Part shown: positions 8,405 through 14,794 of the stretch, in pieces
Layout: every line of letters begins with the position of its first letter
How positions within the stretch are numbered: position 1 is the stretch's first letter
Source of the DNA: a virus
Taxonomy: Duplodnaviria; Heunggongvirae; Uroviricota; Caudoviricetes
Strand: one strand, 5' to 3'
IMG/VR virus record: IMGVR_UViG_2541047865_000003
Length of the DNA stretch: 35,749 bases
Position numbers and translations under genes: made by a program
Notes under the pieces: model-generated
Seen by the model: the letters and a program-made list of their open reading frames with translations, nothing else
Database searches by the model: none
What the model was told of the DNA's origin: nothing

Positions 8405-8607
8405 GGGGCAATATCCTCTTCTGTACTGGCTTCTTCAGCCTCGATAACCGGAATCAGTAACAACAGCCCGGAGGGCAGCACCGGCGTGATGGCCACGTGT
8501 GGATTGGCGGCAATTATCCGGGGATAGCCCAGCGGGTCGCCGTAGTACTGCCATGCGAGAGAGTCCCAGCGCTCTCCGTCACGGGTGACATGTTCAAGAA
8601 ACATCAC
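8392..8607 (-). CDS. Tail protein X-like (small LysM-like tail protein)
   Basis: 71 aa with the gpX-like motif (GERWDSLAWQYYGDP). Confidence 0.6.
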   Translation of the reverse strand: MMFLEHVTRDGERWDSLAWQYYGDPLGYPRIIAANPHVAITPVLPSGLLLLIPVIEAEEASTEEDIAPWLR

Positions 8608-9488
8608 ACACTCCTCGCCAGAATTTTGGCTGCCATGGTGCTTAACCCCGGCGACATACGGGTGAAGGTGGTGCTGGCGGAGTTAAGCTGCCCGGAAACG
8701 GCATCCAGCGCCGCTGCGATATTGCTGCCGTCCACGCCGCTCAGTGAAGACTGTGCCTGTTGTACATACGTGGCCGCATCACTGGTGGCTCTGGCCAGAC
8801 TGATGGCATCAGGCATGGATTCAGAAAGCGCATTAAATGCCGGAACGCTTTGACCCAACGCCCCGGACACGTTGCCCAGCCCGCTCATCAACCCCGGTAC
8901 GCGGGTCAGTGCAACGGCGGGGTTATCCTTCATTTTCTGCGCCACCCGAACGGCACTGATGGTGGTCTGGAGAACAGACTGCGCCTGTTTGGCGTAGTTG
9001 ACGCCGTCGCGGACGTACTGCGCTACCCCGGAAGGTGAAGGAACGGCACCGGAGACCGCCCCGACGCCGGGAACCTGCGTGCGTATTGCGGGTGGCTGTA
9101 GCGGGTTTTTCGGGTCGCCGATGTACTCCCGGAGAGACGCGGTGGCATTGACGGCCAGCACGTTGCCGGTGCTGTCGGTCTGCTCGCTGGTCGCAGTAAC
9201 ATCGGTAATCACGAACCAGCCGCGATAGTCACCGTTGCCGAAGACCAGCGCCAGCGCTTGATGGGCCTTCATGGCCGTTCGCAGTCTCGCCAGCTCCACG
9301 TCGGGCACACAATAGTGCTGATGGAAGACCAGGCTTATCTGGATTTCGTCCAGCTTATCGCCAACGAACTGCAGGCCGGGCTTACCCTCGATACGGGGAT
9401 GCTCCGCATAATCGACGCCGAACGTGACCTCGAAGCCGTCCCAGTAGGTAATCAGTTCAAACTCAATATCACCCAATACTGCAAACAT
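8604..9488 (-). CDS. Tail protein (P2 gpU-like / Mu N-like DNA-circularisation protein)
   Basis: 294 aa with a gpU-like N-terminus (MFAVLGDIEFEL…), immediately downstream of the tape measure gene. Confidence 0.6.
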   Translation of the reverse strand: MFAVLGDIEFELITYWDGFEVTFGVDYAEHPRIEGKPGLQFVGDKLDEIQISLVFHQHYCVPDVELARLRTAMKAHQALALVFGNGDYRGWFVITDVTATSEQTDSTGNVLAVNATASLREYIGDPKNPLQPPAIRTQVPGVGAVSGAVPSPSGVAQYVRDGVNYAKQAQSVLQTTISAVRVAQKMKDNPAVALTRVPGLMSGLGNVSGALGQSVPAFNALSESMPDAISLARATSDAATYVQQAQSSLSGVDGSNIAAALDAVSGQLNSASTTFTRMSPGLSTMAAKILARSV

Positions 9489-11953
9489 CAGCTGTACCTC
9501 CTGCGTTGTTGCTGAGCCAGCAGACGCTCCAGCATTTTCTCCAGCTCATGCAGGCTCATATTCAGTACGCCGGTCAACCCGTCAGGCGCTGCGGTTTCTT
9601 TGCCATTGAGGAAAAACTGAGGATTAAAGCTGACCTGGATACCGCCAGATGTTCCGCTGCCAGTTGCAGCTGCGCCACGACCTGAATATCCCGCCGCCAT
9701 GATTTCCGGCGACGGGATACGGGGAACATCCGGTGTCATTTCAGTGGCCAGACGCTGCCCGGCCAGTGCAGCAAGTGGTGTGGTGCGCTGCAGGCCGATA
9801 GCTGCTCCCTGCGCGATGTTGTCACCAAAGCCTATAAACACGCGGCTCGGCGAATGAATGCCCAGCTTTTCCTTGAACCAACCGCCGACGCTGTCGCCCA
9901 TATCTGTGACGGTGGTTTTGAGCGACTCCCATTTGTTTTTGATGCCGTTAATCAGGCCGTCGATAAGATGGCCACCGAAGTCGGTGAACTTCGCTGGCAG
10001 ATCAACACCGAGGTATTTCAGCGCAGCCGCAAAGGCTTTATAGAGCAGACCAACCGGCGACCAGTTAATCAGCAGCTTACCAATCCCCACGACACCGCCA
10101 TTAAACGCCTCTTTAATGTCAGCCCAGCGCTGTTTAAACCAGCTACTGACTGCGCCCCAGTTGCGATAAATAAGGTAAGCTGCTGCCGCGACGGCGGTGA
10201 TGGCGAGACCAATGGGATTCATCAGCAGCGCCCGGCCAATCCAGAGAACGGCCCGCCCGGCGATCATAATGCCGCGAACCAGCCCACCTGACAGCACACC
10301 ACCCAGTGTTCTGGCTCCTCTGGCGACGGCGCTGAAGCCGGTCACCAGCCAGCGGAGCTTACCGCCTTCACCGAGTGCAAGCGACAGTCGAAGCCAGTTG
10401 GCCCGCAGTAAAACGGCATTTTTCCAGACGTTAACAAAGGGGGAAATAAGGAGATTCAGCCCCAGCTTGAGACCGATAGTGGCCATCTTGAAAGCGAGTA
10501 ATGCTCCTACAACCTTTATGGTGCCGCTGACGATTTGCGGGTTTGCCGCTATCCATTTGCCGACACTGTCCATTAAAGGAATAAAAGTCTCACCCAGTTG
10601 GATCAAGGCCGGGCGTAGTGACTCACCAATGCTGATGGCTGCCTCGTTAAAACCAATCTGAGTTCTGCGCCAACGACCTTCGAGCGTATTATTTTGTTTT
10701 GCAGCATCCTTATCCAGCGTAGACATTGCTGACGGGGTATTCATTTCCTGCTTGCTGGAAAGGTATTTATCCCAGCCCTGACGCATTGACAGTAAATGGT
10801 TAACGGTCTGAATATCAGTGAAGACTTCTGCCAGACCAAATGACTCCATTAGCTTCTGCTGGCCTTCCTGATCGCCTCTTGAGCCTGCTGCTTTCCATTG
10901 CTGTAAAAACGCCTTACCTTTACCGTCGATAAAACGGTTGGCAATCATCAGTGAGGCTTCATACTGTGAGAAGCCCTGAGCGACGTAATTCTGCATTGAC
11001 CCCTGGTAATCCACCCCGGCTTTAGCATATTTCTGGATGGTATCTCCGCGCCCCATCGCCGCCAGCCAGTTTGACATATTGGTGACGGCCTCTTCCGCTG
11101 AGCCGCTGCCTTTACCAACTTCCAGACTGGCGACGATCTGGGTAATCGCATCTTTTCCATAAATACCACGAGCAGCGAAGGCTTTAGCCATACCGGGTAA
11201 TGCTTTTGCCATATCCTTCAGCTCAAATGACCCAAGTTTGGCTCCTGTTGCCGCAATACCAAATGCCTGTTCAAGTTCTTTCGCATCAGTGATTCTGAGT
11301 GCATCGCTGAAGGCATAAGTCATTTTGGCAAGGTCGGTCATATCGGCTTTGGTTGCTGTAGCGGTCTTTCCAAGCATCTCTGCAAACGTTGCTGCCCGTT
11401 CGGGGGCCATACCATCAGCAACTAATTGTCCGACTCCCCCTAACAGAGACTCCTGCAGTTGGTTAACCTTCAGCGAGGCCTGTCTGATAGCCAGGCCAAT
11501 TGCACGTTCCTGCCTTGAATCCAGATCACCAGTGACACTGATATCCCGCAACTGCGATTCAAACGAGGCATATTGTTTGACTGAGGCCATGACCGGTGCA
11601 CCCAGTGTTCTGACGATGGCATAGGTTTCTGCTCCCTGGCCATAGAGCGCCATGCGGTTAGCTTTCAGCGCGTCACTGGTGGTTGATACTGCTGACAAAC
11701 GGCGCTGCTGGCGCTCAATTTGCTCCATTGTGCGGCTTACCCGCAGCAGGTCGCTGTTGAGGCGCTGCATCCGGGAAGAACCCAACTGACCATAGCGTTC
11801 TGTTGCACGGGTTAAGGCGTTTTGGCGTTCCTGCAGGCGGCGCGATGTATCGCCCAGGGAATCAAGGGCGCGTCGGGTACCGCTGACGGCTGAGCGGAAG
11901 CTACTCCCGACAATGCCGCCAATAATGACGCCGACTGAAAATTCACTGGCCAC
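9488..11953 (-). CDS. Tail tape measure protein
   Basis: 821 aa; long helical N-terminal region, Gly/Ala-rich hydrophobic central segments; located after the chaperone pair. Confidence 0.85.
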   Translation of the reverse strand: MASEFSVGVIIGGIVGSSFRSAVSGTRRALDSLGDTSRRLQERQNALTRATERYGQLGSSRMQRLNSDLLRVSRTMEQIERQQRRLSAVSTTSDALKANRMALYGQGAETYAIVRTLGAPVMASVKQYASFESQLRDISVTGDLDSRQERAIGLAIRQASLKVNQLQESLLGGVGQLVADGMAPERAATFAEMLGKTATATKADMTDLAKMTYAFSDALRITDAKELEQAFGIAATGAKLGSFELKDMAKALPGMAKAFAARGIYGKDAITQIVASLEVGKGSGSAEEAVTNMSNWLAAMGRGDTIQKYAKAGVDYQGSMQNYVAQGFSQYEASLMIANRFIDGKGKAFLQQWKAAGSRGDQEGQQKLMESFGLAEVFTDIQTVNHLLSMRQGWDKYLSSKQEMNTPSAMSTLDKDAAKQNNTLEGRWRRTQIGFNEAAISIGESLRPALIQLGETFIPLMDSVGKWIAANPQIVSGTIKVVGALLAFKMATIGLKLGLNLLISPFVNVWKNAVLLRANWLRLSLALGEGGKLRWLVTGFSAVARGARTLGGVLSGGLVRGIMIAGRAVLWIGRALLMNPIGLAITAVAAAAYLIYRNWGAVSSWFKQRWADIKEAFNGGVVGIGKLLINWSPVGLLYKAFAAALKYLGVDLPAKFTDFGGHLIDGLINGIKNKWESLKTTVTDMGDSVGGWFKEKLGIHSPSRVFIGFGDNIAQGAAIGLQRTTPLAALAGQRLATEMTPDVPRIPSPEIMAAGYSGRGAAATGSGTSGGIQVSFNPQFFLNGKETAAPDGLTGVLNMSLHELEKMLERLLAQQQRRRYS

Positions 11954-12148
11954 GGTGGTTATCCTCTGAAAGCGGAAAAACGGAAGGAAAATGTCTGAGA
12001 GCCATGCAGAACAGCCGCGAGTAGCGGCTGTTAAGTGATGAGGAGTTAATGATTATCGCCGAACTCGCTTCTGATTTGCACTTCAGCCTGCTCCAGCCAC
12101 ATCTCCAGATCGTCAGTATCGAGGGCATCAATCTCCCCCGGCTGAAAT

Positions 12149-12463
12149 CTAAACCACCTCGCCAGCAGCCCCTGCGCCTGCATCAGCGTTTTCGTCGCTC
12201 TTGCCCAGCCCAGTGACTTGCTGAAATCGTTTCTGCAGCTCCATGTAGTCGGCAAGATCCATATTATCGAGGTCTTCCGGAAGAATACCGGTGCTACGGG
12301 CAATCAGCGGCTCGTCCCAGTCAGCCGGGTCTTTACTGATTTTGCGCACCTGCTTCAGGTCTTTGACCGTCAGGCGTTTCAGTTCAACCTGCTCAACTCT
12401 GGTGCCAGCAGCGGTGGTGAAGGGGTAAGACAGCTTAAAAGTATCGGATTGGGTTTGTGACAT
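12149..12463 (-). CDS. Tail assembly chaperone (gpE-like); overlapping frame 12046..12303 is the likely frameshift-extended form (E+E'-like)
   Basis: 104 aa upstream of the tape measure. A second frame overlapping its 3' end stays open to 12046 and encodes an E'-like tail (…DTDDLEMWLEQAEVQIRSEFGD). RBS CAGGAG before the ATG. Confidence 0.6.
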   Translation of the reverse strand: MSQTQSDTFKLSYPFTTAAGTRVEQVELKRLTVKDLKQVRKISKDPADWDEPLIARSTGILPEDLDNMDLADYMELQKRFQQVTGLGKSDENADAGAGAAGEVV

Positions 12464-12527
12464 GATCGTGCTCCTGTGTAAGTTCAGAGCAGTATGTCTG
12501 GTGGTGGGACTGGCAGATATTAAAGGG

Positions 12528-12554
12528 GATTAAGAAGAAAGGGGCCGAAGCCCC
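12528..12554 (-). terminator. Rho-independent terminator inside the tail gene cluster
   Basis: Minus-strand GGGGC-TTCG-GCCCC hairpin (at ~12541-12554) followed by TTTCTTCTT, just downstream of the 93-aa ORF stop. Confidence 0.55.
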
Positions 12555-12561
12555 TGTGATA

Positions 12562-12843
12562 TCAGTGAGTGCGAAAGCCTTTGCAGTTACGCAGGAAGGC
12601 GATAAGAAGTACCTTTCCTTCAGATTTGCCGATGCCGGTGAACCAGTGGTCAGGTGGCTCCCATGCCTCAATCAGGTCAGCGAGCTTTCGTGCTTTGGAG
12701 CGTGTGCAGTCAATCGGGTCATTGGTTTTCTGGGTATTAAAAAGGTTTTCCACCCCTGAAATATCAAGGATGGTAAACCACGTACCATTCCCCATGCCAA
12801 TCGAACCACAGTTCCCGCCTTTATCTTCAATCTCGACGGTCAC
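12562..12843 (-). CDS. Hypothetical protein (93 aa) between tail tube and chaperone genes
   Basis: GTG start 2 nt after the tube stop with a GGGGG RBS; followed by its own terminator; no recognisable motif; locally lower GC. Confidence 0.45.
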   Translation of the reverse strand: MTVEIEDKGGNCGSIGMGNGTWFTILDISGVENLFNTQKTNDPIDCTRSKARKLADLIEAWEPPDHWFTGIGKSEGKVLLIAFLRNCKGFRTH

Positions 12844-12845
12844 CG

Positions 12846-13367
12846 TCAGCCCCCGATGTTGATGCGGTAGTCGGTCAACTGGTCAATGCCGCCGACGCGG
12901 AAGATGTTGGCCAGATAGTCCAGCTCCAGCAACTCTTCACCATCCAGTACCTGCTTGATGTACGTGCAGGTGAAGCTACTGGAGAACTCGGCGTTCTCAT
13001 GCTGTTTGAACGTCCCCAGCGGGTTCTTCTTAAACATGATCGTCAGGAAAGTGACCAGCGGAATTTCGTCAATCAGCCCCTGCGAGCTGTAGCGCTGAAC
13101 GCTGGAACGGCACTGCAGCGCCAGCGACTTATACGGGTTCGCGGCAGACAGCATCGCGTCGCGGTAAAAGCTGTTCCACTTGATCTCGCCCTCAAGCTTG
13201 TCGAAGCCAGCAGGGAGTTCCACCTTGCCCACCATCCCCAGCGCCTTATGCTCCTGCATGGTCATGGAGACGTCAGGCAGTTTGACCTCCTCGGCCCGGC
13301 CCAGCAGGTTAGCGCCATCCAGGTAGATGTTGGCATTCGTGATGCGGTTGATCTCAATCTTTGCCAT
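12846..13367 (-). CDS. Tail tube protein
   Basis: 173 aa directly after the sheath gene with 1-nt stop/start overlap; size and position as for Mu M / P2 FII. Confidence 0.8.
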   Translation of the reverse strand: MAKIEINRITNANIYLDGANLLGRAEEVKLPDVSMTMQEHKALGMVGKVELPAGFDKLEGEIKWNSFYRDAMLSAANPYKSLALQCRSSVQRYSSQGLIDEIPLVTFLTIMFKKNPLGTFKQHENAEFSSSFTCTYIKQVLDGEELLELDYLANIFRVGGIDQLTDYRINIGG

Positions 13368-14794
13368 CAGCTATTCCCCTTCAGGGTTAACAGGTATTCC
13401 GAGGTGATCTCGGTCTCAAACGTCAGTCGCTCCAGCGGCGGTGGCGGCGTGTATTTGTAGCTCAGCAACAGATGACCGGCGGCCAGCTCCATCTCTTCAT
13501 TACGGGCCGGATCAAACCAGCAACTGAAGCCCAGCAGTGCACCGTCGCCAATCAGCTTGCGACCGTAGGCGTTGACCGACTCCGTCAGCGCATCAATCAG
13601 TGCCTGGGTAATCGGCATGTCGATGTACTGCTGGCTGAAATAACGCAGGGACTCGTTGATAACATCACCGGTGCGGCGAACGTTCTCAAAGTTGCGCATA
13701 TGGGTGACCGTTGGCCATGCTGCCGTCCGGTTGCCCCACAGACGCAGGCCGCTGCCGTAGCTGCTGAAGACCGTAGTGATGCCCTGTTCGTTGAGCAGGT
13801 TCACCTCGCTCTGCGGGTCATCAATCATTGCCGACAGCTGGCGCTCCACGCCGGTGATACCCAGAATCTCCTGGTTGGAGGACGACCACCAGTAGCCCTT
13901 GTCCAGGTCGACCTTGGCACGCAGACCTGCAGCACGCTGGCTCAGCGGCTCCAGCCGTTCGCTGTTGGTGGCCGCGTCGTACACCTTGACGTGCGGATAG
14001 CACAGACGGACGCGGTCGGAGCTGGTATTGAAGTTAATGGTGCCTTCCGGGCCACGCCCCGCCAGAGCCTGCGCAAAAGTGGTACCAATCGGCGCGTCGA
14101 TGTAGGTCACCGCGCCCAGCTTCTCAGCCATGGCGATAAGCTCAACCGAGACGCTGTTCTGGGTGCAGAATACCGGGGCAATCAGAATTTTGGCGAAGTA
14201 GCCAAACAGGTTGAAGCTGTCGTTAAGCAACTTCATGCCGGTACGGTTGCCTGCCGCGTTAACGGTACCGATGATATCAGCCGGGGTGACTTTGGTCGGA
14301 TCGGCATAGTTATAGCTGGCCTTCACCGTTGCATCTGCAGCAATGCTTTTACCAAGATTAGTAATCACCCCGGTCTGCGCATCAAGCGAGTAGTCCTGAC
14401 CTTCCACATAAGGCTGACCGTCGCTGTCCGGTTTCAGTACCAGCTGCGCGATCACCGGATTAGCCAGCTGTGCCTTGCCCGTCGCCTTGTCGAATGTTAC
14501 GTCTTCATCGGCCACAGCGGTTTTATGCACAGCCGGATCAAGCACGTTAATGACCAGAACGGTGCCTGCCCCATGGTCGTAGATCGCATCCAGTGCCTGC
14601 GGAATGGTAAAGCCAGTGAGCTGGCTGCCAAACGCCGCTGCATCTTTCTCAGACAGGCACTGCACCAGCGTATTGACGTCTCCCATTGGGGCGGTACCAA
14701 TCAGGCCAATGACGGCGGATTTCACCGTTTTAACCGGGCGGGCACCGTTTTCCACCTCAATGGTTTCGACGCCATGCAGATAGTTAGCTGACAT
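13367..14794 (-). CDS. Contractile tail sheath protein
   Basis: 475 aa with a typical sheath N-terminus (MSANYLHGVETIEV…IGLIGTAP). Confidence 0.85.
   Translation of the reverse strand: MSANYLHGVETIEVENGARPVKTVKSAVIGLIGTAPMGDVNTLVQCLSEKDAAAFGSQLTGFTIPQALDAIYDHGAGTVLVINVLDPAVHKTAVADEDVTFDKATGKAQLANPVIAQLVLKPDSDGQPYVEGQDYSLDAQTGVITNLGKSIAADATVKASYNYADPTKVTPADIIGTVNAAGNRTGMKLLNDSFNLFGYFAKILIAPVFCTQNSVSVELIAMAEKLGAVTYIDAPIGTTFAQALAGRGPEGTINFNTSSDRVRLCYPHVKVYDAATNSERLEPLSQRAAGLRAKVDLDKGYWWSSSNQEILGITGVERQLSAMIDDPQSEVNLLNEQGITTVFSSYGSGLRLWGNRTAAWPTVTHMRNFENVRRTGDVINESLRYFSQQYIDMPITQALIDALTESVNAYGRKLIGDGALLGFSCWFDPARNEEMELAAGHLLLSYKYTPPPPLERLTFETEITSEYLLTLKGNS

Follow-up and report, generated by a model that had tools for sequence, protein, structure and literature searches.

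[quoted passage not shown] Tail-chaperone frameshifting is textbook knowledge; to our knowledge, almost all annotated cases are −1 shifts, and +1 cases are poorly served by annotation pipelines and by tools such as PRFect. The locus lies in a stretch of 35,749 nucleotides from a tailed virus (IMG/VR record IMGVR_UViG_2541047865_000003), the whole of which is referred to here as the window. The original prediction, made from the sequence alone, was that a probable programmed frameshift joins the two frames. Comparison of related loci supports this, in that purifying selection acts on the overlapping frame, whose product includes a conserved E'-like domain and for which no start codon is conserved. 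Judged from these sequence data, recoding that links the two frames appears to be by far the most convincing explanation.

Gene order and Pfam matches identify the window as a Mu-like transposable prophage that carries a P2-type contractile-tail module on the minus strand (Table 1); its other genes include an rve transposase, a MuB-like AAA protein, and a Mu-type portal. The window has 100% identity with both Escherichia phage Phi06_2974 B and a prophage of E. coli CFS3292 and 82% identity with phage PhiKM (classed as Bcepmuvirus); it also has matches in 641 of 5426 complete E. coli genomes. Positions 1-1602 on the plus strand hold a fragment of a fimbrial usher gene (PapC_N and Usher, profile positions 2-320 of 549). 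Because the fragment stops at 1602, directly adjoining phage genes, this suggests that the transposable prophage integrated in or right beside an usher gene.

Table 1. Coordinates of the tail chaperone locus and adjacent features in the window
Feature	Position	Strand	Basis or comment
gpU gene	8604-9488	−	Pfam match
Tape measure gene, 821 aa, GTG start	9488-11953	−	Pfam PhageMin_Tail, E = 2e-15; PGAP "tape measure protein"
+1-frame extension, 58 codons plus TAA (12048-12046)	12046-12222	−	Translation, wobble periodicity, conservation
P2 E'-like (GpE) domain, LARWFRFQPGEIDALDTDDLEMWLEQAEVQ	12076-12165	−	PF06528, sub-threshold; hhalign versus P2 E'
G5 run (GCC GGG GGA in frame 0), Mu −2 site lookalike	12135-12139	−	3' of the ORF1 stop in the window
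Chaperone ORF1, 104 aa	12149-12463	−	Pfam Phage_TAC_7, E = 6.8e-23
GGG_G run	12172-12169	−	
Candidate +1 shift site, CGA_UUU_C	12223-12229	−	Conservation and stop bracketing
Shine-Dalgarno-like AGGAG	12471-12475	−	7 nt 5' of the ORF1 ATG; read from the sequence
93-aa ORF of unknown function	12562-12843	−	ORF list
Tail tube gene (P2 FII-like), bounding the chaperone locus upstream	12846-13367	−	Pfam Phage_tube, E = 4.8e-54
Sheath gene	13367-14794	−	Pfam match

The chaperone frame, ORF1, runs from an ATG at 12463 to a TAG at 12151-12149 and matches Pfam family PF10109 (Phage_TAC_7) almost end to end (80.9 bits against a gathering cutoff of 25; profile positions 1-78 of 79). This family takes in P2 E, Mu gp41, and gp14. 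ORF1 also matches phrog_166, a "tail protein" (E = 1.4e-31), and is annotated by PGAP as "phage tail assembly protein" in an identical RefSeq prophage; a scan of ORF1 and the extension against NCBIfam yielded zero matches. By family and position, ORF1 is a PF10109 tail assembly chaperone encoded between the tube and tape-measure genes, and the tape measure protein would be its expected client. The position of the ORF1 stop drifts among relatives, which end after 90, 92, 100, 104, 106, 109, or 111 aa, and the tail of frame 0 is unconstrained.

Several features of the flanking DNA were also noted. The 93-aa ORF is conserved and sits between the tube and chaperone genes, where P2 has nothing; it matches phrog_1239 (unknown function; E = 7e-45) and, weakly, DUF7739, and its counterpart in one relative (L110) carries PF13876, Phage_gp49_66. 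Between this ORF and the chaperone gene, positions 12540-12555 of the minus strand form a terminator-like hairpin, AGGGGCTTCGGCCCCT followed by TTCTTCTT, that could act as a partial terminator, keeping chaperone and tape measure expression below that of the sheath and tube. An 8-bp GC-rich hairpin without a T tract, ACAGCCGC-tactc-GCGGCTGT (12011-12031, minus strand), lies between the stop codon of the extension and the start of the tape-measure gene; in an 85%-identical relative (L003), the stem is identical and the loop is different. This hairpin may serve in mRNA processing, mRNA stability, or attenuation.

As originally described, the 104-aa ORF ends at 12149 and the overlapping frame stays open to 12046, and both coordinates and translation agree with that description. 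The second frame is open on the minus strand from about 12310 to the TAA at 12048-12046. The distance between the two ends (12149 − 12046 = 103 = 3n + 1) and the translations place the extension in the +1 (equivalently, −2) frame relative to ORF1. The failure of the original search to find a canonical XXXYYYZ heptamer is borne out as well: ORF1 contains no in-frame X_XXY_YYZ, and none would fit because the overlapping frame is +1, not −1. The canonical −1 heptamer was discarded as a candidate on both counts. The openness of the +1 frame is weak evidence when taken alone because an open stretch of 85 codons has a chance probability of ∼0.04, given the frequency of +1-frame stops in the neighboring tail genes (79 in 2108 codons).

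To characterize the overlap, about 160 related loci (more than 150) were gathered from IMG/VR, GTDB genomes, contigs with distant homologues, and GenBank phages, including BcepMu, Mu, and P2. The loci span Enterobacterales, the Burkholderia BcepMu group, Pseudomonas, and Ralstonia-type phages. The IMG/VR loci were collected partly by three single-protein scans, and the scan of GTDB genomes covered Enterobacterales only, owing to narrow search patterns. Because many of the loci are closely related, they correspond to ∼10 independent lineages rather than 150.

The pattern of substitutions changes along the gene. Among 54 unique relatives, the numbers of variable columns at frame-0 codon positions 1, 2, and 3 are 31, 24, and 67 in codons 2-76 and 26, 6, and 6 in codons 96-137. 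Frame-0 position 1 is the wobble position of the +1 frame. Since the substitutions past codon ∼96 sit at the third position of the +1 frame, this frame is under selection and appears to be translated. For example, Gly18 of the extension (frame-0 codons 98-99) is encoded by GGG, GGC, GGT, or GGA among relatives, and Arg25 (frame-0 codon 105, the TAG stop in the window) alternates between AGA and CGG. Such changes are silent in the +1 frame only; in frame 0, they would yield A, P, S, T, or a stop. The extension frame is kept in all members of the clade apart from a few loci with 1-nt indels, which was the outcome of the check originally suggested, namely, comparison of the overlap across homologous prophages. 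A frozen-wobble signal was also detected (7/11 versus 5/72 codons; p = 5e-5), partly due to CAG codons, which are strongly preferred anyway. Taken at the level of sequence, we consider the conservation evidence for the +1 frame decisive.

The extension matches phrog_8286 (E = 5e-31), an entry of "unknown function" in PHROGs. Its description as E'-like is upheld, with the proviso that the window peptide itself is sub-threshold against PF06528, Phage_P2_GpE (14.1 to 14.9 bits, below the cutoff of 23; E = 0.02 to 0.03; positions 4-33 of 37). The extension peptides of 11 of 16 relatives match PF06528 at E ≤ 0.1 (best E = 2.4e-4), a profile of the extension aligns with the P2 E' sequence (hhalign E = 2e-5, probability 77%), and PGAP annotates a homologous ORF in a degraded prophage as a "GpE family phage tail protein." The extension of the enteric lineages has the sequence ...AQGLLARWFRFQPGEIDALDTDDLEMWLEQAEEQIK..., and divergent clades retain a recognizably homologous motif. 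By these comparisons, the E'-like domain specified by the overlapping frame is conserved and under purifying selection. No start codon for the extension is conserved among the relatives, the ATG at 12183 in the window being replaced by ACG, ACA, ATT, or AAA elsewhere, which makes independent initiation unlikely. A Trp located 1 to 6 codons past a conserved Phe of the chaperone is invariant in the +1 frame of 16 divergent extensions; therefore, +1 reading seems to begin near this Phe, which is Phe80 in the window.

Stop codons in the relatives bracket the shift to an interval of about 13 codons around Phe80. On the 5' side, Pseudomonas-type and Ralstonia-type relatives have a +1-frame stop (TGA) 3 codons upstream of the conserved Phe. 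On the 3' side, frame 0 stops 9 codons past the Phe in two loci (L113/L114), 11 codons past it in a 90-aa E. coli form (P0023, found on 914 contigs), and 15 codons past it in L110. Within this interval, the sole slip-competent element conserved across lineages is TTT followed by C. It is present at the homologous Phe in 117/117 located +1-type loci and in 37/37 further unique loci, and TTC is never found. The preceding codon is usually the rare CGA; the context is CGA TTT CAG in enterics, CGA TTT CTG in Ralstonia-type phages, GTG TTT CGG in Pseudomonas, and TCC or GCC TTT CGC in the Burkholderia BcepMu clade. TTT at this position runs against the codon preference of the high-GC phages, in which TTT accounts for 16/111, 0/12, and 4/25 Phe codons (TTC, about 85 to 100%). 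Transcriptional slippage was set aside, as inspection of the allowed interval showed no run of ≥6 A or T.

The best candidate in the window is CGA_UUU_C, with CGA (12229-12227) in the E site, the UUU of Phe80 (12226-12224) in the P site, and C12223 skipped, about 24 codons 5' of the ORF1 stop. The original prediction that the site or mechanism may be nonstandard fits this candidate and the +1 frame. As in other members of the UUU_C class, the overlap opens with a conserved UUU_C whose UUU is an ORF1 codon. [quoted passage not shown] Just 5' of UUU, no Shine-Dalgarno-like stimulator was seen, the only GGAG lying 12 nt upstream and not being conserved. RNAalifold applied to 17 divergent sequences gave a consensus of −1.0 kcal/mol with 0 covarying pairs; the window's own RNA fold is marginal (z = −1.9). 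With no hungry A-site codon, Shine-Dalgarno-like element, or conserved RNA structure, the efficiency of the shift may be low, and it probably is, as would suit the long form of a chaperone. The P2 shift has an efficiency of about 10%. Published values are 30:1 for lambda (PMC5009743) and about 2% for Mu.

The model that we consider likely is a +1 slip of the P-site tRNA-Phe from UUU to UUC at 12226-12223, giving a 138-aa fusion. The majority of ribosomes would stay in frame 0 to the TAG at 12149 and produce the 104-aa short form. In a minority, the tRNA-Phe on UUU, with CGA in the E site, would slip forward by one base and re-pair with UUC (12225-12223); the next codon would be AGC (12222-12220), and translation would continue in the +1 frame to the TAA at 12046. 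The predicted long form, join(12463..12224, 12222..12046), would consist of chaperone residues 1-80, a linker of ∼17 residues (SKSLGWARATKTLMQAQ), and the P2 E'-like domain. Lambda G/GT and P2 E/E+E' suggest by analogy that the short and long forms would both bind the tape-measure protein through their common N-terminal domain, that the rare extension would recruit tube subunits, and that the slip frequency would set the short/long ratio required in tail assembly. We infer a ribosomal frame change in the +1 rather than the −2 direction that takes place exactly on UUU_C; the shift efficiency and the roles of the two products are inferred in the same way.

The slip sequence itself has precedents. 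UUU_C is an established +1 P-site slip sequence because a single tRNA-Phe pairs better with UUC, and it has been shown to act as such in influenza PA-X, at UCC_UUU_CGU (PMC3498833). In the window tail genes, CGA accounts for 4 of 119 Arg codons. CGA is decoded through an I:A wobble pair, and UUU-Y sites are reportedly prone to +1 shifts in E. coli. The rare, conserved CGA of the enteric and Ralstonia-type sites may act from the E site.

Alternatively, although we regard this as unlikely, the frame could change elsewhere, either by a −2 or +1 slip on a G-run or, 1 to 2 codons upstream of UUU, through the rare CGA in the A site. The G-runs draw attention because the verified −2 site of Mu, CGG GGG CGA, is also a G5 run followed by CGA, because the 111-aa relatives read through the G5 run in frame 0 (GCC GGG GGA GAT TGA), and because GGG_N would retain two of three pairs following a +1 slip. 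However, the G5 run of the window is located downstream of the ORF1 TAG, and +1-frame selection is already present 5' of both G-runs, beginning about 14 codons upstream of G5. Moreover, both runs carry variants that are synonymous in the +1 frame (for G5, CCT GGG, CCA GGG, and GGT), and they are missing from most Ralstonia-type, Pseudomonas, and Burkholderia relatives. Frame 0 stops before the position of the G-runs in L113/L114, L110, and the 90-aa P0023/L051 form. Both runs, which fall outside the bracketed interval, were therefore rejected as the site; at the frame junction of the window, no G-run of the Mu −2 type can be reached in frame 0, and G5 is not conserved. The conservation of TTT_C could instead be explained, at least partly, by dual coding of Phe (TTT in frame 0 and TTC in the +1 frame) were the frame to change 1 or 2 codons earlier, e.g., while the rare CGA occupies the A site. 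CGA is indeed rare and is conserved in the enteric and Ralstonia-type lineages, but it is absent from the Pseudomonas and Burkholderia clades, whereas UUU_C is universal. The codon preceding CGA varies (AAA, AAG, AAC, ACC, GAC, GAA, CGT, GCC, and others) and is rarely slip-competent.

Database proteins of 129 to 144 aa in which the two frames are fused (P0001-P0012) were tried as a guide to the site and discarded. Their junctions fall at varied homopolymers (A5, G3, and the G5 run), and they do not reveal the shift site because they look like indels or assembly errors. In L081, L096, and P0003-P0009, a 1-nt deletion in the G5 run joins frame 0 to the distal extension (...VPVSAG/EIDALD...; 138 to 140 aa), skipping the conserved AQGLLARWFRFQP; one cluster of these fusions has 16 member sequences. 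They may stem from sequencing errors in homopolymers, from prophage decay, or from a genuinely hypermutable site. Another fusion was found in Apirhabdus apintestini (L107, about 1501-1920), where a 1-nt indel 5' of the Phe joins the +1 frame to the N-terminal domain (...LADYLG/CRPDFKKSQGW...); therefore, only the long form would be made. This locus may be a pseudogene, an assembly error, or a fusion that occurs naturally and is constitutive.

A second alternative dispenses with recoding altogether: the extension would be a separate small gene ("GpE family," phrog_8286) with its own start, e.g., the ATG at 12183. Gene callers routinely call such ORFs, among them phrog_8286 members and gp42 of BcepMu, and PGAP annotates a GTG-initiated, 52-aa "GpE family phage tail protein" in a related degraded prophage. 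In addition to the in-frame ATG of the window, the BcepMu clade has a conserved Met in the motif [EKS]MRAP. Nevertheless, this alternative is quite improbable. Across the family, no start is conserved, and the GTG chosen by PGAP is GCA in the window, where the ATG at 12183 is not preceded by a Shine-Dalgarno sequence. The +1-frame Trp and other residues 5' of every candidate start are conserved, P2 E' is made only as an extension of E (GenBank feature and literature), and a free E' domain would be without the part that binds the tape measure. Finally, the notion that the overlapping frame is a nonfunctional relic or a chance opening can hardly be maintained: an 85-codon open frame is not very improbable by chance (P ∼0.04) and the identical RefSeq prophage has no annotation there, but the strong +1-frame purifying selection, conserved from E. 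coli to Burkholderia, and the homology to P2 E' effectively refute it.

The fusion by a +1 slip on UUU_C, the reading preferred here, has consequences for annotation. In the records examined, the long form is unannotated, PGAP giving only "phage tail assembly protein." In the GenBank record of BcepMu (L122, AY539836, 7603-8364), the E'-like +1 ORF is entered as an independent gene, gp42, and slippage was proposed between gp42 and gp43; our data indicate that the real pair is probably gp41 and gp42, joined at UCC UUU CGC. For a related phage, the KS10 paper reports no detectable shift site, and a literature search for a +1 shift in the chaperones of BcepMu-like phages found no description. If CGA_UUU_C is the junction, it would allow the product of an essential tail gene to be annotated correctly in related prophages, provide a compact natural +1 signal that works without the usual stimulators, and record a switch of slip direction within a single protein family at an apparently corresponding codon.

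Among known systems, the locus can be compared first with the G/GT-type chaperone pairs (Xu, Hendrix & Duda 2004). The position is the same, with tube, chaperone, and tape measure genes all on the minus strand, and the 3' end of the first ORF is overlapped by another, in a different frame, that has no conserved start of its own. The overlap lacks the canonical −1 heptamer X_XXY_YYZ and has the conserved UUU_C +1 site instead. The original likening to lambda G/GT and P2 E/E+E' thus holds for position, family, and architecture but fails for the frame, which is +1 and not their −1. By the same three features, the locus appears to belong genuinely to the class of tail-chaperone frameshifts. Reviews of this class recognize −1, −2, or +1 shifts (PMC5009743). 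In the lambda paradigm, a short and a long chaperone, gpG and gpGT, with a common N terminus are made at a fixed low ratio from genes preceding the tape-measure gene (PMC5009743). The window chaperone has no sequence similarity to that of lambda, a siphovirus that uses a −1 shift. The lambda slip site is G_GGA_AAG.

A close counterpart is gpE/gpE+E' of P2. The N-terminal family (PF10109) is common to both, the extensions are homologous (hhalign E = 2e-5), and the gene order of P2, tube, chaperone, tape measure, gpU, and gpD, matches that of the window. The P2 slip site is also at a Phe in a comparable position, a correspondence derived from the spacing to the E' motif alone (27 aa from Phe to FHWPP in P2 versus 24 aa from Phe80 to FRFQP in the window). 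The mechanisms differ: P2 uses a −1 tandem slip on U_UUU_UUG (GGT TTT TTG), whereas the window has a +1 frame, no heptamer, and, as we propose, a single-tRNA slip on UUU_C. Two other relatives reach the E'-like domain by a −1 shift. L163 (IMG/VR UViG 3300020156_000080), which is 40% identical, has a −1 heptamer, AGT TTT TTC, at a Phe aligned with Phe80 by inspection, and Pasteurella phage AFS-2018a (L120) reaches a homologous E'-like domain through an A_AAG-type site, CAA AAG GGA AAG TAA. Because these two loci use −1, the slip direction seems to have changed within the Phage_TAC_7 family.

Mu gp41 is likewise the chaperone of a Mu-like transposable myovirus, encoded between the tube and tape-measure genes, with an extension in the +1/−2 frame, and a rare CGA adjoins its shift site, as in the window. 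However, the verified shift of Mu is a −2 slip on a G5 run, whereas +1-frame selection in the window has already begun 5' of its G-runs; no similarity is detectable between the Mu extension and that of the window, and BcepMu-like tails are P2-like.

For the slip sequence itself, the parallel is influenza A PA-X (UCC_UUU_CGU), with which the window shares the UUU_C tetranucleotide and a restricted E-site codon (PMC3498833); the BcepMu sequence, UCC UUU CGC, is nearly identical to it. The window differs from PA-X in being read by bacterial ribosomes and in having a common A-site codon, CAG, and CGA in the E site, and the proteins are unrelated. A single P-site tRNA that re-pairs in the +1 frame, as proposed for the window, is also found at the CUU_UGA of E. 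coli prfB, and UUU-pyrimidine error sites such as argI are known to be shift-prone in E. coli. On balance, we lean toward the view that a dedicated bacterial +1 signal, [CGA/UCC/GUG]_UUU_C, is common to the BcepMu-like myoviruses of Entero-, Beta-, and Gammaproteobacteria, that it acts without the usual stimulators, that it is the counterpart of the PA-X signal, and that it perhaps evolved from an ancestral −1 heptamer, U_UUU_UUY, at a Phe codon that appears to be the same. If so, the direction of slippage was switched in these phages while the site and the architecture of the product were kept.
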